A stretch of 64,000 nucleotides of DNA from Candidatus Enterousia sp. Lineage in GTDB: Bacteria > Pseudomonadota > Alphaproteobacteria > Rs-D84. Positions 1-63,134 of the stretch are shown here, one piece after another. How positions within the stretch are numbered: the first letter of the stretch is position 1; each line of letters opens with the position of its first letter. Where the stretch lies: the NCBI GenBank assembly GCA_045613785.1, contig JAZLBQ010000001.1, positions 2,571-66,570 on the forward strand, read 5' to 3'. The notes beneath the pieces were generated by a model, which saw only the letters and a program-made list of their open reading frames with translations, made no database searches and was not told where the DNA came from. The position numbers and the translations under genes were made by a program.

Positions 1-557
1 GTGCATTCTGAAAAAAATCTATTAAAATCAGCATCTTCTGCACAATTTCTGAAATCGGCAGTGCAACGTTGGTCTTGGATTAAACATGATTTAATTTCCG
101 AAGAACAGACCGTTTTAGATTTCTTTTTTGCCATCTTGTCCAGTGTTTGAGACATCTGAATTGATATCCCAGCAGCACGGCAGGACTGTTCAATAAGTTT
201 GTCATATGCTTCAGAAACGTCGTCAGGGGTGCAACCAGAAACTTTCTTGGTGCATTGCGTCGTTGCCCAGGCATAGCGTTCGCCAGGGGCAGATGGGGCA
301 GACTTTAATTCTTTGTCAGAAATGTTGTATTTTGCCGACGTGCCAACCGATACACTGTTCATCTTTTTTGCATTTGATGGTGTGCCAGCGTTCGCAGTGC
401 CGCAATATTGACACCGTGCCGCAGGATTTGATGATACATTTATCGCACATACTGAATCCAGGCAACGGGTCAGATTTGCACGGGAACATGTTGTTGCAGC
501 ATTGGCCGCAGGTGCCGCCAATATCGCAGTTAGTAAAAATATTCTATATGTTTTCAT
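1..557 (-). CDS. secreted cysteine-rich protein, paralogue of the CMDxFC family (N-terminal part only; ORF runs off the window start)
   Basis: ATG at 557 and open with no stop to nt 1, translated by hand. It is missing from the ORF track because no stop lies in the window. Signal peptide MKTYRIFLLTAILAAPAANA. The Cys framework CSRANLTRCLDSVC..RCQYC and ..SCLIQDQRCTADFRNCAED aligns with 9828..11981 and 12004..14508. Confidence 0.7.
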   Translation of the reverse strand, partial: MKTYRIFLLTAILAAPAANAATTCSRANLTRCLDSVCAINVSSNPAARCQYCGTANAGTPSNAKKMNSVSVGTSAKYNISDKELKSAPSAPGERYAWATTQCTKKVSGCTPDDVSEAYDKLIEQSCRAAGISIQMSQTLDKMAKKKSKTVCSSEIKSCLIQDQRCTADFRNCAEDADFNRFFSEC

Positions 558-689
558 TTCTCTCTTGGTTCTTATTATAACAAAAATCAAAAGTGCTAGC
601 AAAAGAAAAAATATTTAATCTTAGTCTTGACAAAATGATATTCTTTGTCTATATTTTGTGTATAAATAACTTTAGAAAAGGATTAAAAA

Positions 690-1511
690 ATGGCAAGAAC
701 AAAAGAATGGTGGTGGATACACGCTTCGGCTGGGGTCGTTTCAGTTCTGTTGTTGGTAGGACTGTGCGGAACATGTAGTTCTGCGAATAATAAAAATGCA
801 GAATTGGAAAAGAAAAATGCAGATTTTAAAGAGGCAATCAATATACTGAAAAAAGCGAATGAAGCAATCGAGGGTTTGAAGTCTGAAAATGCTGTAAAGG
901 ACTCTATTATTGAAAAGCAGAGTGCTTTGTGGGCGGTAGTCGAAACTGAAAAAGGCGTTTTGCGTGATTCTATCACTGTGCTGAATGATTCTATTGATGG
1001 GTTAAACGAAGAATTAAAGCAGGTAAATGCTGATTTGGAAGATTGCAGAAACTCAAAAAAGTCTGCAGTAAAGAAGCCTGCAGTAAAGAAACCAGAACAG
1101 AAGAAAACGACTCCAAAAAAGTCAGAACAAAAGAAATCAGAACAAAAGAAGTCTGAGGAAACAAAGCCAGTGGTTGTGCCTGTTCAGCCAGTCAAGGTGG
1201 TTAAACCAGATACTGTTTATGTCGTTGTGGAACAACCAAGAAAGGATTGTGCAGGCGGTAAGACAAAAATCAATCTGGATAATTCGGATAACAATGGTGC
1301 TGTTGTTGTTGGTAAGCAATGTGTTCAGGATACAGAAATTACATTGCAGAACGGATCTGTCAATAATGGTGCAATTGTCGTAGGTAGCAATAATCACGTT
1401 GTTATTGGTGGAACTCAACAACAGGTGGTAGATACTTTGCGTCGTATTGAAAATGCTAATAAGGCATATGGTTATTACAAGGTAAAACGTGTTGTTCGCC
1501 GTGTAAGATAA
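690..1511 (+). CDS. membrane-anchored coiled-coil protein with Lys-rich tandem repeats (hypothetical)
   Basis: 273-aa ORF with an N-terminal hydrophobic anchor (WWWIHASAGVVSVLLLVGLCG) followed by heptad-like coiled coil. Repeats are KKPAVKKPAVKKPEQKK and KKSEQKKSEQKKSEE, encoded by 15-nt tandem repeats near 1063..1160. A terminator follows. Confidence 0.7.
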   Translation: MARTKEWWWIHASAGVVSVLLLVGLCGTCSSANNKNAELEKKNADFKEAINILKKANEAIEGLKSENAVKDSIIEKQSALWAVVETEKGVLRDSITVLNDSIDGLNEELKQVNADLEDCRNSKKSAVKKPAVKKPEQKKTTPKKSEQKKSEQKKSEETKPVVVPVQPVKVVKPDTVYVVVEQPRKDCAGGKTKINLDNSDNNGAVVVGKQCVQDTEITLQNGSVNNGAIVVGSNNHVVIGGTQQQVVDTLRRIENANKAYGYYKVKRVVRRVR

Positions 1512-1530
1512 TGTTGTTGTTTGTTAGTAT

Positions 1531-1559
1531 TCGGTTCGCATGTGCGAACCGATTTTTTT
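1531..1559 (+). terminator. rho-independent terminator
   Basis: Hairpin TCGGTTCGCA-TGTG-CGAACCGA followed by T7. Confidence 0.8.
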
Positions 1560-1629
1560 ATGTGTTTTTTTATCTGGACAGGTAAAATAATCTTGTGCTA
1601 AGATTTATTTGTATATAGAGAGAATAGAT

Positions 1630-4600
1630 ATGAAGTTTATCAGATTTTTAGCGTTTTCTTTGTTCTTTGCTCCGTTCGCAGCAAGTGCAGCAAGCAGTGA
1701 TTTTATGATGGCAGCACAGTTGTTGGCAGCGGCCAAGGCAGCCGATATTCAACAGGTGCAAAGTTTGGTAAATGCTGGTGCTGATATAAACTTTGTTGAT
1801 TCAACAGGGGTTTCTATCGTTTGCACCGCTTTGATGAATAATGATGTGCGTGCGGCACAAATCTTGCAGATGTATGGGGCGGATGCGTCAAAATGTGATC
1901 GTCAGATAAAGCAATTTAATAATCGTAATAAACCCAGGGCCAGTGGAGGGCTGTTTAGCGGACTGTCGTCTGTCCAGGGGATTACGTTAGCGGCGGCGGG
2001 GGCCGCCGTTGTTGTAGGTGGCTTGTTGTTGCTGACTGATGTGTTCGACCCTGGTAATGATAATGATGCTGCATCATCAGATGGTAATCGACCCGACAAT
2101 AATCCAGATGATAATACTGATCAAAGTGCAGTGGCTTATTTGTCTGTGCCGTATAGTCCAGCGTATTTGGGACTTGATGGAAAAATCACAACAAGTGATG
2201 AGACTTATCGTGCAAATTTAACCTTGTGGGATCCAACCGCTGGCAGTGCTTTGCGTCAGGCGGATTTTAATTATTTTAGACCGCAGGTTCAGGCTGAAAA
2301 TAACTATGTTATCGACGGCTTATATTTGCCAATGCAGAATTATCTGTTGATGATGCATGGATATTCAGCCTTTGCTAATGAATATATGGGGCAGGGAATC
2401 TTTCGTGATACGGCAACTCGTAACCCGATATTAGTTGGAAACAGTGCTACTGGAGGGCGTCCTGTGATTGCAGGATTGGTAACAGATAATGGGGTTAGTC
2501 CTGTGGGGGCGTTGGATAGGTCTGGTGGTATAGTGTATGCAATTAGTGCGGCGGCAGATTCGGCAACTTATCTGGTGGATAAATTTACAAACTTTAATAA
2601 TCCAACATCTGATGGATTGGGAACTGAAATTGTTGGTTTTGATTTCTCGGGAAATGGAACTGCGATGAATTTGTTTGCCGATTCGTATGATAATGCACTG
2701 GGGAAAATTGTCGCCGGATGGGAGGCAGGTGGTCGCACAGATGGCGATTTAATCGGTTTTGTTCCAAATGGACGCTTGGGAATTTTTAGAACAGGTGGTG
2801 GTAAATATTGGCAGGATTTGGTTAGTCCACTTGAGGGGGAAGTTCTGGGAACGGTCGTAAATGGTGATGGGGCAGATGAAAATGCGATTGATGTTGGTGA
2901 TACGATAACCTTTGGTGGAAAAACTTATTTGATTTCGTTGGCTGTTGCAGATTCTACAATTGTCAATCCAACGATTACTATCAATGGAACGACCTATAAA
3001 TTGCCAAGTAATAGCACGCTGTTAAAGGGTGTTTGTTCGTCAAGTGTTGAAGGGGAATGTGATGACGTTTCTGATATTGCTATTTATCTTGGGGATGATG
3101 GTGCTTATTATGTAAATACAACAGGTACTAATTCTGTCGATAATGTCTTGATGGTAAATGGTGGTAATATTTATGCAAAAAAAGAATTAGTTGATGCAGA
3201 TTATAAAAATTTTCAGGCTTTATATAATGCACGCACTGTTAGCGATGTCTTGGCAAATGTATCCGTGATTGATGCGGCACGTGGAAATGATTATTTAACG
3301 ATTGCAGACGTGCCGGGCTTGTTCGATTTGACTTCGGCATCCAAGGAAGAAGTTTTTGCCGCACTGATAAATTCTGCGTATGACAAGAATAATTCTGATA
3401 TAAACAGCCAGGGTATGTATGCACACAGAATGTTTAATAATTATACTGCTGGTTCGCCAATTCTGCTTATGCCAGCAGGTGAATTTCAATGGACAGGTGG
3501 GGCAGCAAAATACGCAACATTTGAAAATTATGCTCCGTTGTTATATGACGGTAATTTGGAACATATGTTTATGACAATTGTTGCAGTTCAGCATACAGGT
3601 GGAACTGCAGGGGCTGGGTCTATTGCAGGTTATGGTAATGGCACTGGCGATAGTTATGGCCCGTTGCGTTTGTCTGTCTGGCAGGATTATAATGGAACGT
3701 TAGAAGATGCGTCTGATGATATTGTTTATATGTCCAGAAAATGTGGGGTTGCTGGTGTCGGATTAAATGGAATTGACCCTTGGTGCTTTGCAGCAGCAGG
3801 GCCAACAGCAGAAATGGCGACGGCTGCGGCGGCAGGGGCGGTTGCTTCATTGAAGGGGGCTTTTGATTATATGTCGAATCCTCAGATATTTATTTTGATG
3901 GCACTGACAGCGGACGGGTATTTGTTAGGAACAGATTCTACAGGTGGTGTTTTCACCAAGGATGCTTTGGTCGGATATTTGAAGAATATGTATTCGCTGC
4001 CATCGGAATATTATGAAGATACTTTGACAGGAGATGCATATTTACAGGCTTTTGCAGATGTGTTTGGTTATGGCTTGATAAATCTGGAACGGGCAATGAC
4101 ACCAAACAAGAAAATTTACTTCTTTGATGGAACAAATATTGTTTCCGCAGGCGGCAATGCGTATTGGCGTGCAGCACAAAATACAGTGTTTAGACCGTCA
4201 TCTGTCTTAAATATACGTGGGGCAACAATTCGGGCACCTTTCTTTGATGTTTTGGAAAGCGTTGATGGCAGTATGAGTCTGCCACGTGTTTGGGAAAATG
4301 AGTTTGCTTTTGGCACAAATGACAAGCGTGGTTTGTATATGGGTGATGTGTTGGGTGAATTAAAAACACGTCGTGATACAGAACAACGCACACAGGTTGG
4401 GGCATTGGGTGTTTCTATGCGGTTTTCAGAACGTGCCTATGTTGATAACTTAAATGGTTTGGATAATTTGAATTTGGATTTCCAAAGCGGAAAATGGAAT
4501 TTTGCGGCGTCTTATCAACGTTATTTAACAGATGGGGCGTCTAGATTCGATGGAACTGCTAATCCTGTTTTGGGATTGGTTTCAAATGCAGTCGTTTCCG

Positions 4601-5337
4601 ATGTTGTGTATAAGTCTGGTAATTGGTCTTTTGGTGGACGTGTCTTTTCAGGTGCAATCACAGATGAGGGGCTGTTAGAAAATGATCCGACAATTTCTGC
4701 CCAGTATATGCCTGCAAAGTTAGGATTGATGAACGGTGGACAGTCAACAATTGCATGGGAAAATGAAAAATTCAGTTTTGCAGGTAATTTTGGTGCTGCT
4801 TATGAAACAAATACATTGTTGGGGGCATGGACAGATGGACTGTTGAATTTGGGAAATGGTCAGACAATGTATGTGGATTTTGTTGGACAGTATAATTTTG
4901 CTGATATGGCTGAATTGACAGCACGAGCAACTTTTGCACAGACGATGTCTGATGTTGCCGGTGATTTTGTTTTGGGTATGTCTGATGTTTATTCAAATGC
5001 ATTTGCATTGGGGGTAAATTTTGGTGCCTTTGAATTTGCTGTGTCTCAGCCGTTGGCTATTACACGTGGGAATTTACAATATGCGTATGCTGACTATGAT
5101 GTTGTAGAAGTGGATAAAAACAAATATGAATTAAAGGTTGTTGATGCGTATGTTGCAGATTTAGATCTGCGGCCTGAAAAACGTGAAGTCCGTTTTGCAG
5201 GAACGTATCGTCATAATTTTGGTCAATTTACAGATGCTGCGTTTGGATTTATTTATAGGGTGAATCCAAATAATACAGATGATTTTGGAGATGAATCAAT
5301 ATTTATGATGAAGTTATCACATCGCTTGGGAATATAA
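1630..5337 (+). CDS. autotransporter-like outer-membrane protein: ankyrin repeats + degenerate subtilase (S8)-like domain + C-terminal beta-barrel
   Basis: The ATG at 1630 gives signal peptide MKFIRFLAFSLFFAPFAASAA; the track start at 1609 is TTG. An ankyrin-like segment reads LLAAAKAADIQQVQSLVNAGADINFVDSTG..NNDVRAAQILQMYGADASKCD. The region GPTAEMATAAAAGAVASLKGAFDYMSNPQI..FGYGLINLERAMTP is homologous to the Ser-motif region of the S8 protein at 51467..53332 but lacks the Ser. The last ~350 aa have an alternating beta-strand pattern. Confidence 0.7.
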   Translation: MKFIRFLAFSLFFAPFAASAASSDFMMAAQLLAAAKAADIQQVQSLVNAGADINFVDSTGVSIVCTALMNNDVRAAQILQMYGADASKCDRQIKQFNNRNKPRASGGLFSGLSSVQGITLAAAGAAVVVGGLLLLTDVFDPGNDNDAASSDGNRPDNNPDDNTDQSAVAYLSVPYSPAYLGLDGKITTSDETYRANLTLWDPTAGSALRQADFNYFRPQVQAENNYVIDGLYLPMQNYLLMMHGYSAFANEYMGQGIFRDTATRNPILVGNSATGGRPVIAGLVTDNGVSPVGALDRSGGIVYAISAAADSATYLVDKFTNFNNPTSDGLGTEIVGFDFSGNGTAMNLFADSYDNALGKIVAGWEAGGRTDGDLIGFVPNGRLGIFRTGGGKYWQDLVSPLEGEVLGTVVNGDGADENAIDVGDTITFGGKTYLISLAVADSTIVNPTITINGTTYKLPSNSTLLKGVCSSSVEGECDDVSDIAIYLGDDGAYYVNTTGTNSVDNVLMVNGGNIYAKKELVDADYKNFQALYNARTVSDVLANVSVIDAARGNDYLTIADVPGLFDLTSASKEEVFAALINSAYDKNNSDINSQGMYAHRMFNNYTAGSPILLMPAGEFQWTGGAAKYATFENYAPLLYDGNLEHMFMTIVAVQHTGGTAGAGSIAGYGNGTGDSYGPLRLSVWQDYNGTLEDASDDIVYMSRKCGVAGVGLNGIDPWCFAAAGPTAEMATAAAAGAVASLKGAFDYMSNPQIFILMALTADGYLLGTDSTGGVFTKDALVGYLKNMYSLPSEYYEDTLTGDAYLQAFADVFGYGLINLERAMTPNKKIYFFDGTNIVSAGGNAYWRAAQNTVFRPSSVLNIRGATIRAPFFDVLESVDGSMSLPRVWENEFAFGTNDKRGLYMGDVLGELKTRRDTEQRTQVGALGVSMRFSERAYVDNLNGLDNLNLDFQSGKWNFAASYQRYLTDGASRFDGTANPVLGLVSNAVVSDVVYKSGNWSFGGRVFSGAITDEGLLENDPTISAQYMPAKLGLMNGGQSTIAWENEKFSFAGNFGAAYETNTLLGAWTDGLLNLGNGQTMYVDFVGQYNFADMAELTARATFAQTMSDVAGDFVLGMSDVYSNAFALGVNFGAFEFAVSQPLAITRGNLQYAYADYDVVEVDKNKYELKVVDAYVADLDLRPEKREVRFAGTYRHNFGQFTDAAFGFIYRVNPNNTDDFGDESIFMMKLSHRLGI

Positions 5338-5364
5338 AAAAATCCCCCAAAAGGGGATTTTTTT
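5336..5364 (+). terminator. rho-independent terminator (TCCCC/GGGGA family)
   Basis: AAAAAAATCCCCC-AAAA-GGGGATTTTTTT, immediately after the stop codon. Confidence 0.85.
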
Positions 5365-5419
5365 ATTGATTTTTGTTGTTATCTCTTTACTATTGTTTCG
5401 CAATTAAAGGATAAGAATA

Positions 5420-5848
5420 ATGGATATTAGTTTTAAGACAGTTGTAGAATATGTGAAAAATTTGTTCCCTGGTGCAGCCCCTGTTCAAATTAGCACGAAT
5501 CCAGAGTTGGATGCGGCTACGTTATTAAGAATTTCATCAAATAATTTGTATTTAAAGGCTAGAAATGGTAATCATTATTGGTATTGCTTTGTCGATGATG
5601 ATAATTTGCCAATGGCAAGATATTTGCTGAAAAGTAATGGTGTTAATGTTTCAAAACATTTTAGTCATTATAATCGGCCTTTTTATTCGACGTCAGCACA
5701 ACCGGTTTTACGTGTCAGGGTTTCTATATTGAACAAGAATCCTAAGGCTAAGAATTTTGTTGATTTGGTTATGAAACGCAAGGTGCTGAATTTTTCAGAT
5801 GAATGTGTTATGAAACATATGAATTCTGTAAGGCAAAATATGAAATAA
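5420..5848 (+). CDS. hypothetical basic cytoplasmic protein
   Basis: 142-aa ORF with an AAGGA RBS 7 nt upstream and a terminator directly after. No recognisable motif. Confidence 0.6.
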   Translation: MDISFKTVVEYVKNLFPGAAPVQISTNPELDAATLLRISSNNLYLKARNGNHYWYCFVDDDNLPMARYLLKSNGVNVSKHFSHYNRPFYSTSAQPVLRVRVSILNKNPKAKNFVDLVMKRKVLNFSDECVMKHMNSVRQNMK

Positions 5849-5874
5849 AAAATCCCCAAATCGGGGATTTTTTT
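5847..5874. terminator. bidirectional terminator (TCCCC/GGGGA family)
   Basis: AAAAAATCCCC-AAATC-GGGGATTTTTTT between convergent genes. Both stop codons abut its A and T tracts. Confidence 0.85.
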
Positions 5875-5878
5875 GTTC

Positions 5879-6595
5879 TTATTCAGTTTTGAAATATTGT
5901 TCTTTTTGTTGTTGAGATAGGCGGAACATTTCATCAAAAATTGCGTCGGCATCCGCCATTGTAGTTGGGATGTCTTGTGTGGCATTTTGAATGTCTGTGC
6001 CGTTCAGAACAATTATGCGGGCCGGCAATAAATCACGTCCGCCATTGCAATCAATATAATATTCGTTCGGATTGTAATACTTGCCATAACAGCGACCGTT
6101 TTCAATAGCAATAAATCCGTCGTTTGCCAGAACTTCGCATGTTGGCTGAGTGTCATAGGTTATTTCGCCGTTTGCCAATGTTTCATCAGGTTTGATCAAA
6201 ATACCGTTGCACCATACTGGGACATATTTGCCGTTTACAGATGCCATTGCACCATCTTCGGCAGTTTTACGGCGGCCAAAGCAGTCGCCATCGGCACCCA
6301 GTAAATCTGTGTCAAAGTCAGCGTTTATTCCTGTGCCCTTGGCGATTTCAGCACGCCCCATAGGGACAGCGTCACGACCGCCAGACGTTAGTGCGTCAGG
6401 ACAAATCAGTTTTAAACCACGACAGTTGCTGGTGGCGTCCCACATTTCTGTGTCAAAACCAATGCCCATTGATGAATAGCAGTTCGTTGGACTTAGTCGG
6501 CAAATGGTTGGTTGCAGCCACCATGGTGTCGTGGCAGCATTTCCAGAAGCAATGCTGAATATTGATAATAGTGAAAGTGCCAATATTTTTTTCAT
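5879..6595 (-). CDS. secreted cysteine-rich protein (hypothetical), co-oriented 31 nt downstream of 6627..9344
   Basis: The internal ATG at 6595 gives signal peptide MKKILALSLLSIFSIASGNAA. The mature part has 12 Cys. No known motif. Confidence 0.7.
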   Translation of the reverse strand: MKKILALSLLSIFSIASGNAATTPWWLQPTICRLSPTNCYSSMGIGFDTEMWDATSNCRGLKLICPDALTSGGRDAVPMGRAEIAKGTGINADFDTDLLGADGDCFGRRKTAEDGAMASVNGKYVPVWCNGILIKPDETLANGEITYDTQPTCEVLANDGFIAIENGRCYGKYYNPNEYYIDCNGGRDLLPARIIVLNGTDIQNATQDIPTTMADADAIFDEMFRLSQQQKEQYFKTE

Positions 6596-6626
6596 AGTTC
6601 TCTCTTTTGATTCTATTTTATCAGAT

Positions 6627-9344
6627 TTAATTTGTTGGTTCAACTGTTGAAGTTTCTTCTGTCCATACTGCGTGCAGATTTACAAATGTTGACAAGTTGT
6701 ATATTTCCTCATATTCAAGAGTGTTTTTGATACATTGGCCGTTATTGTTGTAGTATTGGGTTTTATCCCCATTGTTCGGGTTTATGTAGAAATAACCTTG
6801 GAATTTATATGCTTCATCTTCGCACTCAGGAATCTCAACTGTTTCTGGTAGTTCTTCTTGGTGTTTAAGGTTTGCACCTGTGATGTTTACGGCTTTTTTG
6901 ACCGCTTGGCAGGTTTTCTCGTCTGTGTTCACAAAACTAACATTGATTGTGCTGCCTGAATTGTTGCTGGGGGTTGTGATGGTTGTGGTAGTTGTGTCAA
7001 CGGCACAGAATCCCCATTTGGTGTTTGCAGATGTTTCGTCATAGAATTTTTTGAATAATTCTTGACCTGTGGTGTCGTGCGTATCGTCGCCGGTTTTGTC
7101 TGTCCAGACCGTATCAACCCACAGTCCGCCCAGGCGTTCGCATTCGGCAGATAATGTGTTTGCCATTTCTGTGCGGATTTTGTCCATGACAATATTGATG
7201 TCTTGTAAAACGGTTGCGGGCAGGGCGTTTTTGGATTCTGATGGACGGACGCAGGCCTGTATTGCATAGCGTGCAATTTTGTGATACAGACTGCCAATAT
7301 AGTCTGTTCCACATTTGTCATTCTCGGTATCAGTGCTGGAATAAAGTGGTTCTTTGTTGGCTGTTCCGCCTGGACAGTATGAGTCTTTGGGACATGGTGT
7401 GCAGTTGTTGTTTTTCTTTGGTGTGCCGTCATATTCCCCATTTTGGTCTGTCATGTAGTAGCCAGGTTTGCAAGATGTGTATTTTATCAGTTCTGGACAT
7501 GCGTATATCTGTGTGATGTTTGATGTTTGTGTTGTAATGCTTTCAAATGCGGAACCACCACTGTTGATGTTTTGGGTTATCAAGTTGCATTGGTGGATTG
7601 ATGCATACATTTTGTCACCAGGTGCGTATGTTCGACAGGCGTATGGATAGGCGTGCAGGGTGTCGCTGCTGGGGACGGCACACAGGTCATGTGCGTAATC
7701 TTGTAATGTGGCCAGGCATTGGTCGGCAATGCGTTGGCTGGTTATGTCGTGCATCGCGGTAAGCAGTTCTGTCATGCCGTGTGAGCCGCCACCATATAAA
7801 TTACTGCAAGCGTCTAATTTTTCTTGGCACATTTCTTCGGATAATTCCAAACGTTGGCCTAGTAGTAATTGGTCTTTGACGTTGCTAAAATCTTTTAATG
7901 ATTTTGTTTGTTCGTCATAGCATTTTGTGACGATTTCAAAACAGTTGTTTTTTACCTGGCGAACACGTTCTTGTTGATTTTGGTAGATTTCCGCAATCGC
8001 TTGACGCATGAATTCGTCCCAAACTTCGTCCGATAAATCACGGCATGTGTCCAGGGATTGTTCGGCAAATTTTCGTTTGGAATTTAATGTTGCAACAAAT
8101 AGACGGTTTGTTTGGTTGTTTAAAACATCGCCAGATAATGATATTTGTGTTTCAAGTTTGTAAAAGTCAGGACTGTAAATCGGTTCGCCTGTTGTGTAGT
8201 TTAGATAGCGGCCTGTTACGTCAAGACAGTGAACGTAGTTTGGACCGCATGCTAATTCTGATGTTATGTCTGAACGGACGTTGGCGACACAATCATTGAT
8301 TGAAGTGGAATTGTGGTTGTTGTAATTTTCCAAACGTGCCAGGTTCATTTCACGTTCAGCAGCACGAATTGTGCTGTTGGCTGTGTTTAATTTGTCGTCA
8401 AGGTCATTTAATAATATCGAACAATCGTTTTCAATATACATCCCATATGCAGTTGTCACCATTGTCTGGGTGGCTGTGTCGGGGCATTTGTCGATTGTAA
8501 TTTCTGCACATTGGGCGTGAACTGCGTTGTATAAGGCTTCGCCTGTAAGGTTGCTGATGTTTGCACCGCCCATTAAATCGGTTGTTGCCCAGATTGAATT
8601 TATGTCGCCTGCGATATCTAATTTGCCCTGGGTCGATAATGATTGCGATTTCGTTTTTGATAAAACGTCCCTGATGCCAGCAAGTTGTGATGCACTGCCA
8701 GATGTGTCATTGGTAATTGATTGGGTGAATTCGCCAGTCGATGCAGAAAGCATTGCTTTGACTTCGGCCTTGGTTTTGTCAATTACTTCTAGGTTCAGGT
8801 TCTTGAAATCTTGTAATTGGTCGGCGGCTTGGGATAATGCACGTTCTCGTGATTGGATTTCAGGTAATTTTGTCGAACATATACAGCGACGATATGTGTC
8901 GTTGGCTATGCCACAGAACTGATCCATACAGGTAAAGTATGCGTCACGGCATGTGTTGTAGCCAGTGCCAAATGTGTTCGATTGAGTCGTGTTCATCGTA
9001 ATCGTTGCACGAGCAGGACGAATGGCACTGCGTGCAGAATTGGTGCGGTTCGCAGTTGTTCGAATTTTGTTGCCACTGATTGCACTTCGTGCAGTAGATA
9101 CTGTTTTTGTAGTTTGTGCTGTTGTTGCTGTGCGTGAATTACTGCGGTTCGTTGTCGCTGTGCGTGAAACAGTGCGATCAGACGTGGTGCGTGCCGTTGT
9201 TGTTTTTGTTGGGGGTGTTGTTTGAACTTGCGTTCGTGATGTTGTGCTTGTGTTACGGACAGGGCTTTTTTCACTGCGAACAGCGGCGTTGGCAAAACCA
9301 ACACCTAGCAATAGTGCTAGAATTGAAATGTTTATCCTTTTCAT
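6627..9344 (-). CDS. giant secreted Cys-rich/coiled-coil protein, CMDxFC family, with Thr/Arg-rich N-terminal low-complexity region and a CxxCP module
   Basis: Start moved to the ATG at 9344 (MKRINISILALLLGVGFANA signal peptide). The longer track ORF would overlap infA and its terminator. Family box TCRDAYFTCMDQFCGIANDTYRRCICS. Also contains CKPGYYMTDQNGEYDGTPKKNNNCTPCPKDSYCPGG. Confidence 0.8.
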   Translation of the reverse strand: MKRINISILALLLGVGFANAAVRSEKSPVRNTSTTSRTQVQTTPPTKTTTARTTSDRTVSRTATTNRSNSRTATTAQTTKTVSTARSAISGNKIRTTANRTNSARSAIRPARATITMNTTQSNTFGTGYNTCRDAYFTCMDQFCGIANDTYRRCICSTKLPEIQSRERALSQAADQLQDFKNLNLEVIDKTKAEVKAMLSASTGEFTQSITNDTSGSASQLAGIRDVLSKTKSQSLSTQGKLDIAGDINSIWATTDLMGGANISNLTGEALYNAVHAQCAEITIDKCPDTATQTMVTTAYGMYIENDCSILLNDLDDKLNTANSTIRAAEREMNLARLENYNNHNSTSINDCVANVRSDITSELACGPNYVHCLDVTGRYLNYTTGEPIYSPDFYKLETQISLSGDVLNNQTNRLFVATLNSKRKFAEQSLDTCRDLSDEVWDEFMRQAIAEIYQNQQERVRQVKNNCFEIVTKCYDEQTKSLKDFSNVKDQLLLGQRLELSEEMCQEKLDACSNLYGGGSHGMTELLTAMHDITSQRIADQCLATLQDYAHDLCAVPSSDTLHAYPYACRTYAPGDKMYASIHQCNLITQNINSGGSAFESITTQTSNITQIYACPELIKYTSCKPGYYMTDQNGEYDGTPKKNNNCTPCPKDSYCPGGTANKEPLYSSTDTENDKCGTDYIGSLYHKIARYAIQACVRPSESKNALPATVLQDINIVMDKIRTEMANTLSAECERLGGLWVDTVWTDKTGDDTHDTTGQELFKKFYDETSANTKWGFCAVDTTTTTITTPSNNSGSTINVSFVNTDEKTCQAVKKAVNITGANLKHQEELPETVEIPECEDEAYKFQGYFYINPNNGDKTQYYNNNGQCIKNTLEYEEIYNLSTFVNLHAVWTEETSTVEPTN

Positions 9345-9414
9345 CCGTATATATTCTGTGTTTATTTTATCAAAAATATGTGCTGATAACAAGCAAAATG
9401 AAATTGTTTTATTA

Positions 9415-9446
9415 AAATAAAAAACCGCCTTTTGGCGGCGTTTTTT
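9415..9446 (-). terminator. rho-independent terminator of infA
   Basis: Minus-strand hairpin CGCCGCC-AAAA-GGCGG followed by a T run. It overlaps the infA stop codon. Confidence 0.8.
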
Positions 9447-9693
9447 ATTGGTTTGTTGTTTCCCCCGTAGGACGATTGCGTTCAACGAATGTTATGCGTC
9501 CTTTGTCCAGGTCGTATGGGGTCATTTCAACACGAACACGTTCGCCAACGTTTACCCAAATGCGAGCCTTACGCATTTTGCCGCATACGGTCGCCAAAAT
9601 TTCATGTCCGTTTTCTAGTTTTACACGGAACATTGTGTTAGGTAATTTGTCTTCGACTGTGCCAGTGAAAACGATTACATCATCTTTTGCCAT
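9445..9693 (-). CDS. infA: translation initiation factor IF-1
   Basis: 82 aa, with [57 protein letters not shown]. This is the canonical IF-1 S1-fold sequence. Confidence 0.95.
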
Positions 9694-9827
9694 TGTGTTT
9701 TATTCCTTGGGTTTTTATGGGGTATATCTTATTGTTTTTTATGGAAAATTGCAAGGAGTTTTTATTTGCTTGTGAATTTGGGGAAGTTTTGATAAAATAA
9801 AAACAAATTATGTAGGGTGGAGAAAAG

Positions 9828-11981
9828 ATGAAAATTAGAGTCTTGACTGCGTTATTGGCGTTGGTTCCAGGTGTGGCAGTGGCTGCAACCCGTGATGAAA
9901 CAGCACGTATTGGTGTAAATCGTGTCGCTGCTGCTGGTGTGCGTGCACCAACAATGGCTGTGAATATGTCGCCAAATATGAGCGTTGATGTTTCTGTGCC
10001 TGCAAAGAAGGAAGATAAAAATAATTCTGTCGTGGTTCAGCCAGGTGGTGATAAGCCAAGTGGTGGTGATGATTCTGGTGAAGGTAAAGAGCCTGTTATA
10101 AATGTAAATTGTCGTGAGGCATATCGGGCTTGTATGGATGAGTTTTGTTTGTTAGATGAGTCCGAAGGTTATCGTTGTGCTTGTTCGTCTAATATCAATA
10201 AGTCGAAAGATTTAATCAAGGAAATCCAAAAAATTCAAGAAGAGGCGGATAAGTTATATACCGAAGGTGTAGAACGGGAAAATTTGGGGGCAAAAGCACG
10301 CTTGGTCTTTGGTGAAAGTGAGGCGGCTAAGAAAAGTTCTCGTGTGTCGGGGCTTAGTTTCTCGGAGTGGTTGAATTCTGGGGCGATAGATGATGAAGCC
10401 TTGGATACTGATAATGATATTGGTGACGGTTTGTATGCGATGGCTTCTGAATTCTGCTCTGCGGAATTAGAGGGGTGTGCTGATAAAGCTGAAATGGAAG
10501 AGATGTTGTATTCTCGTCAGATTGTTGCAGACTGTAAATCATTTAATTCTTATTTGTCAGAACAGAAAATAAATGCCCAGGCAAATAAACGCACTGCAGA
10601 GGCCGCAGTTCGTCAGGCACGTCTGGCGATGCTGGATACGACTGATAAATATAATCGTGGTGAATGTTTGTTGGCGTATCGGTCCTGTATCGCAGACAAA
10701 GGTGGTTGTGGGGCGAATTTTGAAAACTGTTTAGATGCGGATTTGTTGGGGCGTCGCGCGTATGCCTGTGAAAATGTTTTAGATCAGTGTATGGCGGTCA
10801 GAAATTATGTTTTGCAAGACTGGGAAGCAGAATCAGAATCAATCTTGGTAGATGCGGCAAAGTATGCCGATAAATATCGTCGTCAGACTTGTTTAGCACA
10901 AATTCAGGTTTGTTTGGAAGATGGCTGTTCGACAGGAACTAATTCTGCGTGTTTGACTGATGTCAATGTCGCAGCAGGTGTTTGTCCAATTATTGATGAA
11001 TGTAATGCAATAATCCCTGGTTTAAAAAGTGTAGTAAATGACAAATTAGGTTATCTGCGGACACAATTCTGTCAAAACGATGTTGATGCGTGCTTGCGTG
11101 ATAAGTGCGGTGAAAACTTTACTGCACCAGAGTGTGTCGGTAAAAAAACTTCTGAGATAATCGCAATGTGTCCACAGACAATGTTCCCATCATGCAAAAA
11201 TGAAACTCAGTTTGATATTATTGTGTCGGCTGCTGTTTTGCAGATGGATTATCAGATGTTGCAAGGGTGCGTAAATTATTTTGGCGAACAACTGGGTAAG
11301 GTTTGTGGCACGGATATGGCGTGCTTGCCAACTGATGATGTTGTTGCTGGCTTGATGGAAATTCCTGATTCAGAACAGGGAATGGCAGACTTGCGTGTTA
11401 CGGTTCGTGATAATTCTAAGGCGGCGGTTAATGAATTCTTTAAGCAATTTGAAAAAGATATTACTGTTTCCGCTTGTGTAGATGCAAAAAAACCAGCAGG
11501 TCGCAAGAATTTAGGAGAAAATGTATTTAATACTGCAAAGTTGATTGCTGAAATTGGTGCAGAAAATCGTGCAATGCGTGAACTGGAAGCAAAGATTGCA
11601 GAGTTGTCTCGTCAGCAGGATATAGAAGAGGCCGAAGCAAATTGTTATGCGACATATAAGGTGGAAACACCAGATAAGTCGAGTAAAAATTATAGCTATG
11701 TTCGTAGCGTTGCCTTTGAACCAAGTTTAAGAAATTGTCATGTTTGCCGTATGCAGCAGGTCTGTGAAAAGGGTGGTGAATCCAAGGGAGCAGCTGGTCT
11801 GAAAGGTGCAGCAGGTGGATTGTCAGCTGGGGCTGCGGCAGGAACTATGGTTATGCCTGGCTGGGGAACAGCAATCGGTGGTGTCATCGGTGCAGTCGGT
11901 GGATTGTTCGCAGGACGTAGTGGTGCAGGTGAACAAGAGTTCTGTCAGGAAATCGAAAGTTGCGAAGATATAAATATGTAA
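9828..11981 (+). CDS. giant secreted Cys-rich/coiled-coil protein, CMDxFC family (glycine-zipper C-terminal segment)
   Basis: GGAG RBS and signal peptide MKIRVLTALLALVPGVAVAA. Family box NCREAYRACMDEFCLLDESEGYRCACS. More than 40 Cys. C-terminal GWGTAIGGVIGAVGGLFAG, then ..CEDINM. Confidence 0.85.
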   Translation: MKIRVLTALLALVPGVAVAATRDETARIGVNRVAAAGVRAPTMAVNMSPNMSVDVSVPAKKEDKNNSVVVQPGGDKPSGGDDSGEGKEPVINVNCREAYRACMDEFCLLDESEGYRCACSSNINKSKDLIKEIQKIQEEADKLYTEGVERENLGAKARLVFGESEAAKKSSRVSGLSFSEWLNSGAIDDEALDTDNDIGDGLYAMASEFCSAELEGCADKAEMEEMLYSRQIVADCKSFNSYLSEQKINAQANKRTAEAAVRQARLAMLDTTDKYNRGECLLAYRSCIADKGGCGANFENCLDADLLGRRAYACENVLDQCMAVRNYVLQDWEAESESILVDAAKYADKYRRQTCLAQIQVCLEDGCSTGTNSACLTDVNVAAGVCPIIDECNAIIPGLKSVVNDKLGYLRTQFCQNDVDACLRDKCGENFTAPECVGKKTSEIIAMCPQTMFPSCKNETQFDIIVSAAVLQMDYQMLQGCVNYFGEQLGKVCGTDMACLPTDDVVAGLMEIPDSEQGMADLRVTVRDNSKAAVNEFFKQFEKDITVSACVDAKKPAGRKNLGENVFNTAKLIAEIGAENRAMRELEAKIAELSRQQDIEEAEANCYATYKVETPDKSSKNYSYVRSVAFEPSLRNCHVCRMQQVCEKGGESKGAAGLKGAAGGLSAGAAAGTMVMPGWGTAIGGVIGAVGGLFAGRSGAGEQEFCQEIESCEDINM

Positions 11982-12003
11982 TCTGTTTTTACGGAGAGAG
12001 TTT

Positions 12004-14508
12004 ATGAAAAGAAATATGACTGTTTTATGTTCTGTGTTGTGTGCCCTGGCAATGTTGCCAGGGAACAATGCGTTTGGAGCAACCATCAAAAAAACGACAA
12101 AGCAGTCGGCAATTCAAAAGGGAACTACTGTCAGAGCAAAAACTTCTGCGAATGGGTTGTATGATCAGGCGTGTTATGATGCATATTATGGATGTATGGA
12201 TCAATTTTGTATCTCTGAAAATGAATCAGGTGGCAGTTGTGCATGCAGCGATTTAAATCAGGGCTATAATGAACAGTTGTTGGATATTCAAAAAACTTTG
12301 GCCGAGGCAGAACGTGTCGCAACTGAAGAAGTAGAAAAGGTAAAACTTGGGGCAAATGCTGATATTGTATTTACAGGGACACGTAAATATGATGAAAATG
12401 GTAATTTGCTAGATGTTGATGAAATTGAAACTGAAACAGCGTCTAAGGAAAAAAAACGTGCCGATTTAATGGCGTTGTGGGATGCTAATTTAGGCGAAGA
12501 AGATGAAGATGTCTTTGCTAATGATGTGCTAGATATCGCAGATTTAACTGGTGATGCATTGTATGCAGCTGCTGAAGAGATTTGTTTGGCTCAGGTGCCT
12601 GATTCTTGTGCAAAAGATATGACTTTGTTGAAAAATATGTATTCTCGACAAATTGTTTCGGATTGCAAGGGGTTCGAAAATAGTATTGCACAGAAAAAAG
12701 CAGAGGCTGATTCTGCATTGGCACAGGCAAATGCTGATGTAAGAAGTGCATTAAAGGAATCGCTGGATGCGTCAAACAAGTATGATTTAGGGCAGTGTAT
12801 GGTTCAATTTAAGAACTGTATGAAAACAGATGATGCATGTGGTGAAAATTGGGAAAACTGTGTGTTCACTGTTGCGTCTGAAAATATGCAAAATAATATC
12901 GCAAAAAGCACCGCAGGAACAACAATCGCAACTGTGAATAAATATGATATCACAGAATCTACAATGGAAATTCTAAATTCAAAACGCACTATTTGTGAAA
13001 ATATCCTGGGGCAGTGTGTGAAGGTTCGTGATATGGTTTGGCCTGCTTTCCTGCGTGAGGCTGCACCAACAATCAAGGTGGCAGAAAGTGCGGCAGAATC
13101 TAAATTCCGTCAATCTTGTCTGACAAATATTTCTGGCTGTATTCAAAAGGCTTGTCGTGATGATATTGTCGGACGGGGCGTTGATACAATGGACGCTTGT
13201 CTGTCACGACCAGATATGGTGCGTAGTTTCTGTAAGGTTGAAATCGACCCGTGTGAACGTATGGAACCGTTGATTTGGGGGTATGTAAAAGATAAATTAG
13301 CAGCAATGCGTGTTGATGTTTGCACAAATGAAGTAAAAGAGTGTTTTACAGCAGAAACACGTTGTGGTGAAAATTTCCAGAACTGTATTGGTATGGATTA
13401 TGATTATATTCACGATATTTGTCCAATCGATAGTTTGGTTGTTTGCAAGGCTAATAATCCAGAATTTTCAATGGATGATTTGGATTCTATGTTGATGGGG
13501 CTGTATCTGAATATTGATAATTCAGCATTAGATCAATGTCAAGAACTGGTCGATCGCAAGATGGCAGAAATATGTGGTAGCACAACTGACTGTAATCGAT
13601 TTGCTAGCGATGATACAATTGGAACGGGCAGTTTGCGTTCTCAGAAAGACGGCACAGTTTATCGTGTAACTGGTATGATTTCTTTTGGTTCTATTAAGAT
13701 GGGTGATGCATCAGGACGAATGCTTGATGAGGGAAAGGATGATGCCATAAAGTTGGGGCCGGGTGAAATCGGTGTTGCTGAATATTTGCAGCAAATTCGT
13801 GATCGTAATGTAGGCGTTCAAAATGCAGATGGTATTATTTCAAGTATCGAGGAAGAATTGAATAATATCGCAGGAACAATCAATCGGACAATTGAAATGA
13901 TTGAATCTGACCCTGAAATTCAGTTCTGTGTTAGTGGGCGTGATTTGTCGCAAATTACAGGTAAAAAGGGTAAAACGACGGCTCGTTTCCCAAATCTGTT
14001 GAATCAGGTTAAAATGCAGATTGCGATTGCTGCACTGCGTCAGGCCCAGGATAATTATAATGCAAAATTTAATACCGCTGTTGCAGAGGCAACAAAAGAT
14101 GCATCTGCGGATATTGCACAATATATGTGTCATAAGATGGCGGAAGTAGGTGCAACAACGTTGAAAAGTCCAAATGTTGATTTGGCACCACCATATGCAA
14201 TCAGTTATGATGTTGGCACAGGACTTGTGACAGAAGATTTAACAACCGGTGGACATGCTGTTCAGGATCTGGCCAAGGTTAATTTCAAAAATGGTGGATA
14301 TCTGGGTGGTGCAAAAATGGATATGAATTCGGGGACCAAGGAAACCTCGGCTGTGTTTAATCGTGAGACAAGAACTTGTCATGTTTGCACAACAATAGTA
14401 ACACAAAGTTGTAAAACTACAGGCAGTTCGTCGTGGTTCCATAATAGTCGCAAGATTGACTGTAAAACAAATGATCCGATTGAAAAATGTGAAGATATTC
14501 CAATGTAA
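12004..14508 (+). CDS. giant secreted Cys-rich/coiled-coil protein, CMDxFC family (tandem paralogue)
   Basis: Lies 22 nt after the previous gene and has a signal peptide. Family box ACYDAYYGCMDQFCISENESGGSCACS. Colinear with 9828..11981, for example YSRQIVSDCKGF vs YSRQIVADCKSF and CGENWENC vs CGANFENC. Ends ..CEDIPM. Confidence 0.85.
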   Translation: MKRNMTVLCSVLCALAMLPGNNAFGATIKKTTKQSAIQKGTTVRAKTSANGLYDQACYDAYYGCMDQFCISENESGGSCACSDLNQGYNEQLLDIQKTLAEAERVATEEVEKVKLGANADIVFTGTRKYDENGNLLDVDEIETETASKEKKRADLMALWDANLGEEDEDVFANDVLDIADLTGDALYAAAEEICLAQVPDSCAKDMTLLKNMYSRQIVSDCKGFENSIAQKKAEADSALAQANADVRSALKESLDASNKYDLGQCMVQFKNCMKTDDACGENWENCVFTVASENMQNNIAKSTAGTTIATVNKYDITESTMEILNSKRTICENILGQCVKVRDMVWPAFLREAAPTIKVAESAAESKFRQSCLTNISGCIQKACRDDIVGRGVDTMDACLSRPDMVRSFCKVEIDPCERMEPLIWGYVKDKLAAMRVDVCTNEVKECFTAETRCGENFQNCIGMDYDYIHDICPIDSLVVCKANNPEFSMDDLDSMLMGLYLNIDNSALDQCQELVDRKMAEICGSTTDCNRFASDDTIGTGSLRSQKDGTVYRVTGMISFGSIKMGDASGRMLDEGKDDAIKLGPGEIGVAEYLQQIRDRNVGVQNADGIISSIEEELNNIAGTINRTIEMIESDPEIQFCVSGRDLSQITGKKGKTTARFPNLLNQVKMQIAIAALRQAQDNYNAKFNTAVAEATKDASADIAQYMCHKMAEVGATTLKSPNVDLAPPYAISYDVGTGLVTEDLTTGGHAVQDLAKVNFKNGGYLGGAKMDMNSGTKETSAVFNRETRTCHVCTTIVTQSCKTTGSSSWFHNSRKIDCKTNDPIEKCEDIPM

Positions 14509-14510
14509 AT

Positions 14511-14543
14511 AAAAAAGCAGGCCCTTTTGGGTCTGTTTTTTTT
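14511..14543 (+). terminator. rho-independent terminator
   Basis: GCAGGCCC-TTTT-GGGTCTGT followed by T8. Confidence 0.8.
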
Positions 14544-17779: not shown

Positions 17780-18859
17780 TTAGTCTATTTTGACAGGAAC
17801 TATCGTTTGCTTCTTGGCTGTGTCCAGTGAGTGATATTGGAACGGAACAGATGCAAAATTTATCTCTTTCATGTCCAGACTGCGGACTGTGCGATTATAC
17901 ATCGTATGATAGTATATAACCATATCTTTTAGGTCTGTGGCAACAGTCCACTGGGTGGCCGAAGGCATATTGTTTGGGGCAGTACCTACTGCAAACTGAA
18001 CGCCCAGGGGAACGTCAAAGTTGTTCAGGATATGAAAGGCCTGTTGAATTGTGTCGTATGCATTATCTTGCTGTAAAGAGTAGGTTTTTAAGAATGCTGC
18101 ACGGACAAAGCGTGATGGTGGTGTAAAGTCGCCTGGCAAGCCCAAGAATCCAGAACCAGAACCGAATGAACGCAGTTTAATTGGACCGAACTCGGTTGGG
18201 CCAGCACCACCAGGATGCAGGTTTACATAGTTGTTCAGGTTCGTTAGTTGCCATTGGAATCCTGGGGAATTGGTCAGGACGCCGACTTCGTTTTCGTAAA
18301 AGTTTGGAATGCCATTTACAATTTCCAAGACAACTTGGCGACCATTGGGTTCGGTTATTCGCCAATGGACCGTGCCGGCATTTGGATCAACGTTTATGAT
18401 ACGGACATCATTGATGGCTGCTTTGACTTGGTCGATTGTGGCAAAGCGTGATAATATCCAAGATACAACCTGGAAATCAGCCAAGGATATGTCTTTGTTG
18501 GCTTCGTTATATGGTTCGTAACTGCCGTAGTTTGGAAAGTAAAACAGGGCGGCAGACAGACCGGCTTCGTTTGTGCCGTCGATTATAAATTCAGGCTGTT
18601 CGGTTGCGATGCCGGCATATCCATAGAGTGATGTAAATGACAGGCCGTTCATTGTGCCGTCTGGCAGTAATGATTGGGCAGCATGCCCACGTGGAACAAT
18701 GACATACATATTGTTGTTTTCAGAACCTGACCAGTCCATTGTTCGGGCAACAACAGTTGTGTTGTCTAGTGATTTTAATGTGATGCCTGTGCAGGCGTTT
18801 GATGATTGAATCAGTGCAAGGCACATGGTTAGTGTGGATAAAAATAGTAAATGTTTCAT
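17780..18859 (-). CDS. choloylglycine hydrolase family protein (bile-salt hydrolase / penicillin V acylase-like Ntn hydrolase), secreted
   Basis: Signal peptide ending ..IQSSNA, followed by the nucleophile Cys (CTGITLKS..VVARTMDW). The length and motifs are typical of linear amide C-N hydrolases. Confidence 0.85.
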   Translation of the reverse strand: MKHLLFLSTLTMCLALIQSSNACTGITLKSLDNTTVVARTMDWSGSENNNMYVIVPRGHAAQSLLPDGTMNGLSFTSLYGYAGIATEQPEFIIDGTNEAGLSAALFYFPNYGSYEPYNEANKDISLADFQVVSWILSRFATIDQVKAAINDVRIINVDPNAGTVHWRITEPNGRQVVLEIVNGIPNFYENEVGVLTNSPGFQWQLTNLNNYVNLHPGGAGPTEFGPIKLRSFGSGSGFLGLPGDFTPPSRFVRAAFLKTYSLQQDNAYDTIQQAFHILNNFDVPLGVQFAVGTAPNNMPSATQWTVATDLKDMVIYYHTMYNRTVRSLDMKEINFASVPFQYHSLDTAKKQTIVPVKID

Positions 18860-24505: not shown

Positions 24506-24650
24506 AGATTCTATTGTCCCCTTTTTGGGGGCGTTTTTTTATTAGATAGGGATAGGAATAAAAGAATAATTTTATTGATTATTTATTCTGATGTGCTATG
24601 AATTGTTTATCTGTAATTTTCAGAAATTTGTTTTTAGAAAAGGAGAGCTC

Positions 24651-31339: not shown

Positions 31340-31365
31340 AAAAAAAACGCCCGAAGGCGTTTTTT
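31340..31365 (-). terminator. rho-independent terminator
   Basis: Minus strand: ACGCC-TTCG-GGCGT followed by T7, right after the MotB-like stop. Confidence 0.85.
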
Positions 31366-49965: not shown

Positions 49966-49989
49966 AAATCCCCCAGGTGGGGGATTTTT
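49964..49989. terminator. bidirectional terminator (TCCCC/GGGGA family)
   Basis: AAAAATCCCCC-AGGT-GGGGGATTTTT between convergent genes. Confidence 0.85.
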
Positions 49990-63061: not shown

Positions 63062-63134
63062 AAACCAAAAGGTGTTAAAATTTTTTTTTAGCATTTTATA
63101 GAATGTTTTTGAAAGAAACAGGAGAGGAAATCAG

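Follow-up and report, generated by a model that had tools for sequence, protein, structure and literature searches.

Three genes in a 64,000-nt stretch of DNA from the gut bacterium Candidatus Enterousia sp. (contig JAZLBQ010000001.1; this whole stretch is the window below) encode members of one exported, cysteine-rich and largely helical protein family. The genes, here named B, C and D, are true paralogues that represent three subfamilies. The family matches no described family or solved structure in searches of Pfam, NCBIfam, PHROG and PDB profiles, or in Foldseek searches with models of C and D. A fourth gene, A, truncated by the window edge, is best described from its sequence as a short, distant member that has the N-terminal core only. 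Tentatively, and with a confidence that stops somewhat short of probable, the B, C and D proteins are read as membrane-tethered, disulfide-stapled rods forming a core envelope scaffold. The host belongs to the alphaproteobacterial order Rs-D84, a gut lineage with genomes of <1 Mb; Enterousia lacks central metabolism, biosynthesis and respiratory chains, and it has been proposed to live in dependence on a partner (PMC12306168). Searches of the literature on Enterousia, Rs-D84 and the Cys-rich proteins of reduced gut alphaproteobacteria yielded genome descriptions and no reference to the family. The genes under discussion are arranged in the window as follows.

1..557, minus strand: gene A, cut by the window edge; N-terminal part, a fragment of 185 aa with 13 Cys.
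5879..6595, minus strand: gene E, 238 aa, secreted, 9 Cys; directly downstream of B and outside the family.
6627..9344, minus strand: gene B, 905 aa, 32 Cys.
9445..9693, minus strand: infA (translation initiation factor IF-1); not a family member, the gene-order anchor between B and C.
9828..11981, plus strand: gene C, 717 aa, 36 Cys; best conserved of the three paralogues; C-terminus ...CEDINM.
12004..14508, plus strand: gene D, 834 aa, 38 Cys; C-terminus ...CEDIPM.

A first-pass annotation had described A to D as four clustered giant paralogues of 700-900 aa with about 30-50 Cys each. The four open reading frames (ORFs) are present on the strands and at the positions it gave, together with all the Cys motifs it quoted and the Sec-type leaders. 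Read by eye, each leader runs from a positively charged N-terminus through a hydrophobic core to an AxA-type site before an Ala (MKTYRIFLLTAILAAPAANA, MKRINISILALLLGVGFANA, MKIRVLTALLALVPGVAVA and MKRNMTVLCSVLCALAMLPGNNAFG). Its description of size and Cys content fits B, C and D and fails for A, and the extent of more than 8 kb shrinks on measurement to 7.4 kb for B, C and D, or 7.9 kb when the A fragment is counted.

Paralogy of B, C and D is evident in BLASTP, where C and D share 29% identity over 485 aa (E=9e-56), B matches D at E=5e-22 and B matches C at E=2e-11. In an alignment of 135 orthologues of the three genes, 29 columns are invariant and 21 of these are Cys; the non-Cys invariant columns include M-D-x-F of an N-terminal Cys box and the Y and D of a Y-x3-I-x2-DC element. 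Within the box of C, residues C95, C102, M103, D104, F106, C107, C117, C119 and S120 never vary. The framework extends to distant relatives: among 150 representatives that share <50% identity with one another, a Cys occurs in at least 96% of sequences at 29 of the 36 positions where C has one. No further paralogue was found in the 64-kb window by hidden Markov models (HMMs) of B, C and D built from 3 or 135 sequences.

The proteins have a common anatomy. After the leader comes a disordered linker rich in Arg, Thr and Ser, which is long in B and C and leads to the N-terminal Cys box and a helical stretch; then follow a G-[DE]-x-LY...C-x6-7-C...Y-x3-I-x2-DC element, six-Cys modules, more helices and a small Cys-containing beta module. 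This module ends in ...CEDI[NP]M in C and D, and in B its CED motif is followed by an extra C-terminal extension. The order in B is signal peptide, Thr/Arg/Ser-rich low-complexity linker (~25-125), Cys-laddered helical core (~130-600) and a variable Cys-rich C-terminal part, the last ~100 residues being strain-specific. In C, a disordered linker (20-88) and a helical Cys-laddered core (95-610) lead to a small C-terminal beta module (622-648 plus 704-716), which is split by a Gly/Ala-rich hydrophobic hairpin. In D, the signal peptide precedes a helical Cys-laddered core (55-535) with six-Cys modules at residues 265-338 and 440-481, a beta region (545-590), helices (592-714) and a beta domain (733-833). 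Three landmarks of C are referred to below.

10110..10184, plus strand: N-terminal Cys box, residues 95-119, CREAYRACMDEFCLLDESEGYRCAC; C-x2-AY-x2-CMD-x-FC-x9-C-x-CS.
10665..11195, plus strand: three six-Cys modules, residues 280-321, 355-392 and 415-456; pattern matches.
11775..11927, plus strand: Gly/Ala-rich hydrophobic hairpin, residues 650-700, GAAGLKGAAGGLSAGAAAGTMVMPGWGTAIGGVIGAVGGLFAG; candidate membrane tether.

The six-Cys unit follows the spacing C-x6-C-x4-6-C-x6-9-C-x10-12-C-x5-7-C, with a longer gap in one unit of D. C and D together contain five matches to the pattern C-x6-8-C-x4-6-C-x6-9-C-x8-60-C-x5-8-C, against a mean of 0.012 and a maximum of one in composition-matched shuffles, and this pattern is absent from all other ORFs of the window. 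Within a module, the first two Cys are 7 residues apart and the last two likewise within one residue, so that an i/i+7 spacing on one strand is mirrored on its partner. This is the spacing needed by an antiparallel helical hairpin with two disulfide rungs. Natural variation is consistent with a nested pairing C1-C6, C2-C5, C3-C4, as far as paired losses in sequences can tell; losses of one Cys alone are rare or absent. C287 and C314 are missing jointly in all B-type sequences, C355 and C392 in five D-type representatives (with a single loss in none), C367 and C375 in the B type and one D-type representative, and C422 and C448 in two D-type representatives; as a rule C640 is found with C712, and C646 with C706. 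The number of Cys is even in 125 of 153 mature proteins (82%).

The helical character of the family is seen in AlphaFold2 models of C and D, which are built almost entirely of long helices plus the small C-terminal beta module. Mean pLDDT is 74.4 for C and 73.4 for D; in C, 10-residue blocks average 77-95 between residues 201 and 540 and 75-92 between 561 and 640, and helices include 211-272, 322-366 and 562-609.

A candidate membrane tether is provided in C by the hairpin that interrupts the beta module. Its Kyte-Doolittle 19-residue means reach 1.2-1.3 at 677-682, and C has no other hydrophobic segment beyond the leader. The hairpin is modelled at pLDDT <50 and its block identity among orthologues is 0.76; residues 658-697 score 11-13 bits against the Gly-zipper families PF13488 and PF13441, whose cut-offs are 25-29. 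A lipoprotein anchor is ruled out, no lipobox being visible in A to D. A more hydrophobic hairpin occurs in D2, a fourth long subfamily with 31-34% identity to D, which is absent from the window and lies near A in 7 of 34 A-centred loci. The D2 copies are found at the following positions of the related loci.

L006, 13520..16402: D2.
L008, 1157..3925: D2.
L012, 1104..4160: D2.
L016, 3..2630: D2.
L019, 849..3863: D2.
L020, 1..2955: D2.
L026, 6334..9234: D2.

Four measured D2 copies are ~910-985 aa long from the first Met, and three of them have a hydrophobic hairpin of ~45 aa with a mean hydropathy of up to ~2.1; the C-terminus is often ...TQF. A hydrophobic segment like that of D2, in the equivalent region, is present in 43 of the 150 representatives.

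The first-pass annotation could not place these proteins in any characterised family, and this stands in the searches made here. Against Pfam and NCBIfam, A to D give nothing near threshold; sub-threshold Pfam fragments (YbgS, LAMB4, Baculo_PEP_C, HAM1_C and DUF7631) were dismissed as short and below cut-offs, and Pfam on the 49 longest of the 150 representatives returned one sub-threshold DUF7631 fragment in one protein. PHROG tape-measure matches are confined to the Gly-rich segment of C and were dismissed as compositional. PDB sequence searches with three profiles gave nothing relevant: two chance-level matches (E=0.63) for the 3-sequence profile and none at E<=10 for the others. The best Foldseek match of the C model has E=1.2 and is not significant; for D, the best matches are leviviral coat proteins and secretin barrels, to the ~100-aa C-terminal domain, and none is significant (E>=0.59). 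Pfam detects no autotransporter or other secretion domain in B, C and D, and A to D match neither PF03797 nor the YadA anchor. The same search finds PF03797 in the gene at 24591..28514 (E=5e-29), so the autotransporter test works in this genome. On these searches the family is a new one and its fold unit is probably new too; in general kind, that of exported helical proteins with a structural or adhesive role and disulfides for stability, it is familiar.

The family is large. An exhaustive profile search yields 953 clusters at 50% identity with E<=1e-3, of which 441 have E<=1e-30, and the nearest subfamily among the best 150 representatives is D or D2 for 101, B for 33 and C for 16. Every source name seen for these relatives is 'hypothetical protein', in metagenome-assembled genomes (MAGs) labelled Alphaproteobacteria, Rickettsiales or Proteobacteria. 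The related contigs are named Candidatus Enterousia or 'Alphaproteobacteria bacterium' and come from MAGs recovered from the gut of ruminants, horses, chickens and humans. It is common for MAGs to encode lineage-specific families that are uncharacterised.

Of the four giant paralogues first proposed, A is the one that does not hold. The window contains 185 of its ~288 codons. Full-length orthologues come from 33 related genomes (L003, L007 and 31 others); all but two are 285-295 aa long (31 of 33; ~288 aa), most with 20 Cys, so A is not a giant protein. Plain HMMs of B, C and D from either 3 or 135 sequences miss it. The shared Cys pattern is nevertheless upheld by profile-profile comparison: hhalign of an A profile against the family profile gives probabilities of 77-92% in one run, and a second, independent pair of alignments yields 91.4% (E=9e-7) across 185 columns, the Cys being in register. 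All 20 Cys of A line up in order with the first 20 in C and D, in groups of 5+3+4+2+6 with near-identical spacings. Because the profile match and the collinear Cys coexist with invisibility to plain HMMs, A is a remote, short member. The gene after A in relatives lies outside the window and encodes an exported protein of 502-586 aa with a Gly-rich segment and two copies of the six-Cys spacing (CDANLRACMQSKCGNDYSKC...); plain HMMs on the gene next to A give local matches only, at E ~0.006-0.8, on a CGxxF/YxxC motif. It is one of three further proteins encoded downstream of A in relatives (L007 12411..15956, plus strand; L007 16177..19035, minus strand; L003 10886..12646, plus strand). The other two are a protein of 1181 aa with 72 Cys, whose C-terminus looks OmpA-type by eye only, and one of 952 aa with 68 Cys and ephrin-receptor-like Cys repeats.

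Conservation of B, C and D is of the kind expected of housekeeping genes. Gene order was compared on orthologue contigs (L001 and L037), dN/dS on L001, and A loci on L003, L007 and others. Relative to the L001 orthologues, dN/dS is 0.084 for C, 0.094 for D, 0.124 for B and 0.141 for E, with 0.098 for infA, 0.059 for NrdR and 0.037 for SLT as comparison genes; these values are approximate because dS is saturated (0.9-2.0). Diversifying selection acting on whole genes is excluded despite this saturation. The variable adhesin- or toxin-like genes implied by the first-pass annotation find no support: selection on the orthologues is strongly purifying, and with a dN/dS of 0.08-0.09, versus 0.10 for infA, C and D rank with the better conserved of the genes compared. 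Orthologues are 74-92% identical for C, 67-82% for D and 53-84% for B. Over 120 orthologues, every 50-aa block of C from residue 101 onwards keeps an identity of 0.73-0.95. Conservation in D is highest over 251-550 (0.76-0.93). Block identity in the B core is 0.69-0.76 over 101-550 and 0.55 for 551-600; residues 801-905 are present in 16-30% of 120 orthologues, and the last ~100 residues taken as a whole in about 17%.

The order E-B-infA-C-D is kept in L001 and L037, where D is 80% and 70% identical and the outer neighbours differ. PF01176 is annotated on both infA orthologues, and E-like genes of 237 and 234 aa adjoin B; E itself has zero matches in Pfam, NCBIfam or PHROG. The signals around the block, from consensus scans and pattern matches, are the following.

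5847..5873, minus strand: terminator-like hairpin after E, 12-pair stem and T run; consensus scan, pattern match only.
9364..9392, minus strand: promoter-like site upstream of B, TTGTTA-17-TAAAAT with TG; consensus scan.
9424..9439, minus strand: terminator-like hairpin just downstream of infA, GC-rich stem (GCCGCC...GGCGGT), then a T run; separates infA from B.
9770..9798, plus strand: promoter-like site upstream of C, TTGTGA-17-TAAAAT with TG; consensus scan.
14511..14542, plus strand: terminator-like hairpin after D, 14-pair stem and T run, 3 nt past the D stop.

Promoter-like sites in the region are not more numerous than in shuffled sequence. No terminator-like site was found in the 31-nt gap between B and E or the 22-nt gap between C and D. 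Since terminator-like hairpins follow E, infA and D and none lies inside the pairs, the layout is probably that of two operons, B-E and C-D, which diverge on either side of a separately terminated infA. A functional meaning for the flanking of infA finds no support: with its own terminator, infA is linked to B and C by conserved gene order, not by demonstrated co-expression. In L037, a Pmp-like gene resembling that at 24591..28514 directly adjoins the block. A DsbA/thioredoxin-family gene (L037 19685..20506, plus strand; 273 aa, N-terminal hydrophobic segment, CPYC) lies ~7 kb from the block, and tblastn with this gene found no counterpart in the window.

The favoured reading of B, C and D as parts of an envelope scaffold rests on their housekeeping-level conservation, on the fixed gene order and operon-like layout, and on the cost of the genes, which take up ~0.8% of a <1-Mb genome that has shed most metabolism; it rests further on a tether-like segment in some paralogues and on the fact that no outer-membrane route is recognisable. 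Under this reading, B, C and D would be exported by the Sec pathway, and a periplasmic DsbA-type oxidase would close the nested disulfides C1-C6, C2-C5 and C3-C4. Each helix-loop-helix would become a two-rung 'ladder' with a clamped tip, and the chain of ladders a rigid rod, resistant to proteases and stress. C and D2 would be tethered to the membrane through their C-terminal hydrophobic Gly-rich hairpins, and B and D, which have no such hairpin, would probably associate with the tethered paralogues. The joint product may be a constitutive scaffold or strut of the envelope, comparable in role, not in ancestry, to the disulfide-cross-linked complexes of chlamydiae. The strain-variable tail of B may be the sole exposed or adaptable part.

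Several points weigh against this reading. A first group concerns the structure. The pTM of the two AlphaFold2 models is low (0.37 and 0.47), so an overall rod shape is not established. Derivation of the core as a tandem repeat of one ancestral module is not significant (hhalign between module sub-alignments, E 0.02-0.5), which is why the six-Cys unit is kept solely as a spacing pattern, significant against shuffles. Paired Cys loss is partly confounded by subfamily structure, some co-losses being single evolutionary events. The hydrophobicity of the C hairpin is borderline (~1.2-1.3), and a hydropathy scan found no hydrophobic segment beyond the leader in B and D. A second group concerns location and role. 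Whether the proteins lie in the periplasm or on the cell surface we can only infer, and a neighbourhood and genome rich in surface-type proteins, including a Pmp-like autotransporter, fits a surface location too. The hypervariable tail of B carries Cys-rich C-x-PG-YY-type motifs, like an exposed ligand-facing tip. In an anaerobic gut, exposed disulfides would be less stable. Lastly, the lineage keeps peptidoglycan genes (SLT, M23) and may therefore not need a substitute wall.

Some of these points lead to an alternative that is possible, if rather doubtful, namely that B, C and D form a surface stalk that attaches Enterousia to a partner cell, be it a microbe, a protist or the host epithelium. 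The C-terminal beta modules would possibly serve as oligomeric outer-membrane anchors, the stapled helices as a rigid spacer and the B tail as a binding tip. Such an apparatus would suit the proposed partner-dependent lifestyle and the loss of central metabolism and biosynthesis (PMC12306168). It would also account for the construction of B as a conserved stalk with a hypervariable Cys-rich C-terminal tail. The ~100-aa terminal domain of D has long beta hairpins, although its Foldseek matches are those without significance given above, the aromatic ...TQF terminus of D2 resembles an outer-membrane-protein signal, and the neighbourhood encodes a Pmp-like autotransporter besides other exported proteins. 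C and D, however, are under strong purifying selection over their whole length, which is unusual for exposed gut adhesins, and Pfam and NCBIfam detect no adhesin, autotransporter or YadA-type domain. Many long-range disulfides fit type V passenger export poorly, and the 30-40 Cys predicted to form them here are no better suited to it; the conserved block, moreover, is without dedicated secretion genes.

A thiol-rich coat, in which the Cys would be largely free or metal-bound and would buffer oxygen, oxidants and metals, as proposed for surface proteins of anaerobic gut protists, is improbable. The Cys content of 3.5-5% in an anaerobic gut organism without respiratory chains and the other Cys-rich exported proteins of the window speak for such a coat, but the Cys lie on helices as C-x6-C and not as the CxxC or CxxH of metal or redox sites, they are lost pairwise and leave even counts in 82% of members, a DsbA-family gene is present in the lineage, and strict positional conservation better suits structural pairs than a bulk thiol buffer. 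Secreted effectors or toxins acting on host or competitor cells would explain Sec leaders, large size and unrecognisable domains, and some helical pore-forming or translocation proteins are also featureless in sequence, but three paralogues in fixed order beside infA with housekeeping-level conservation, a block without immunity, secretion or activation gene, structure searches that found no similarity to toxins, and a membrane-tether-like segment in C and D2 make this explanation very improbable.

Resemblances of B, C and D to known systems are analogies, not assignments. One, in principle, is to the CHCH proteins of the mitochondrial intermembrane space (twin Cx9C and twin Cx3C), with which B, C and D would share antiparallel helices clamped by two nested, equally spaced disulfides and oxidative folding in a periplasm-equivalent compartment. 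The spacing differs, being Cx6C instead of Cx9C or Cx3C, with a third Cys pair per unit at the hairpin tip; the units are strung into putative rods of 700-1000 aa, whereas CHCH proteins are single small domains, and PF06747 (CHCH) has no match at E<=1 in the window proteins. The chlamydial OmcB and OmcA proteins (with MOMP and Pmps) are likewise exported, have 4-5% Cys in a small genome and are associated with a partner-dependent lifestyle and a structural role of disulfides, both of which are only proposed for Enterousia; a Pmp-type autotransporter gene in the same genome region adds to the likeness. OmcB, however, is a beta-rich repeat protein, whereas alpha-helix makes up nearly all of the structure predicted for B, C and D, and no sequence or profile match was found. 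Enterousia, moreover, keeps peptidoglycan-related genes, and intermolecular cross-linking, a feature of the chlamydial complex, would be putative here. The Hcp proteins of Helicobacter (Sel1-like repeats) are secreted helical-repeat proteins with disulfide-bridged helix pairs, but they are much smaller, with one disulfide per ~36-aa Sel1-like repeat and a different Cys spacing; Sel1 (PF08238) was not found in 53 family proteins (E<=1 for window proteins, E<=1e-3 in 49 members). The envelope spacer Lpp and the periskeletal filament protein CrvA of Vibrio are Sec-exported, helical and elongated, with a mechanical envelope role of the sort proposed here; these have few or no Cys, no homology to the family was found, and Lpp is a small lipoprotein while B, C and D are without a lipobox. 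Finally, type Vc trimeric autotransporter adhesins show a similar order of leader, long helical stalk and short C-terminal beta module, but the stalk of B, C and D is predicted to consist of disulfide-clamped hairpins and not of a continuous trimeric coiled coil, and dense disulfides fit that type poorly.

The window contains other exported and neighbouring genes. The 1307-aa product of the gene at 24591..28514 (plus strand) matches the Chlamydia polymorphic-membrane-protein (Pmp) repeat family PF02415 (E=1.4e-14) and, at its C-terminus, the autotransporter beta-domain family PF03797 (E=5e-29). The gene at 1630..5337 (plus strand), for a 1235-aa exported protein with 6 Cys, adjoins A also in L003 and L007 (1235 and 1227 aa); the first-pass label 'autotransporter-like' finds no support in Pfam or NCBIfam, where a weak N-terminal ankyrin match is all that appears. 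Between A and this gene, in the window and in relatives, lies 690..1511 (plus strand), whose 273-aa product combines a hydrophobic segment at the N-terminus with a coiled-coil stretch and a repeat rich in Lys and Pro (KKPAVKKPEQKKTTPKKSEQKKSEQKK) and has no family match. An exported 283-aa protein with 30 Cys (10.6%) and repeated C-x-PG-YY / C-x2-CP-type motifs is encoded at 49988..50839 (minus strand); by HMM it is unrelated to B, C and D, and its sole Pfam match is a spurious MSC fragment. The 563-aa product of 29586..31277 (minus strand) has an OmpA domain; its leader is lipobox-like (..LTAC), and residues 346-361 hold a run of six Cys at two-residue spacing (CPACAECPTCPECQACP). A second OmpA-domain gene is at 31364..32476 (minus strand). 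Two other exported products have no Pfam match: that of 19784..23128 (minus strand), with 1114 aa and 25 Cys, and that of the partial ORF at 63102..63998 (plus strand), with 11 Cys. Together with A to E, they suggest an envelope unusually rich in Cys-containing proteins. A member of the choloylglycine (bile-salt) hydrolase family (PF02275, E=1e-64), with a leader that ends just before a catalytic-type Cys (..SSNA, then C), is encoded at 17780..18859 (minus strand) and is a gut-adaptation gene in a very reduced genome. At 40400..42061 (minus strand), a Fic-domain gene (PF02661) stands beside a gene for an APH/choline-kinase-like phosphotransferase, and the pair recurs at the L001 edge. The window has ~41% GC; GC skew is positive in almost all 2-kb bins and the cumulative skew climbs throughout, so that a replication origin or terminus appears to lie outside it.

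The Rs-D84 bacteria, including Enterousia, are widespread and uncultured in the gut. Large conserved exported proteins, and other Cys-rich ones besides, in so tiny a genome point to a structure, of the envelope or for attachment, on which the biology of these cells centres. The family offers a signature for a new family model, a specific disulfide topology and candidate markers or antigens with which the bacteria could be visualised or enriched. A bolder proposal, unlikely to hold in full, is that the six-Cys 'twin Cx6C plus tip disulfide' hairpin is an undescribed bacterial fold unit from which B, C, D and D2 build an essential, tethered exoskeleton in the periplasm or on the surface. If this were true, the exoskeleton would have evolved independently as an all-helical counterpart to the chlamydial Cys-rich envelope complex, with intramolecular and perhaps intermolecular disulfides, and would give a partner-dependent alphaproteobacterium with a sub-1-Mb genome its mechanical integrity or its attachment structure.

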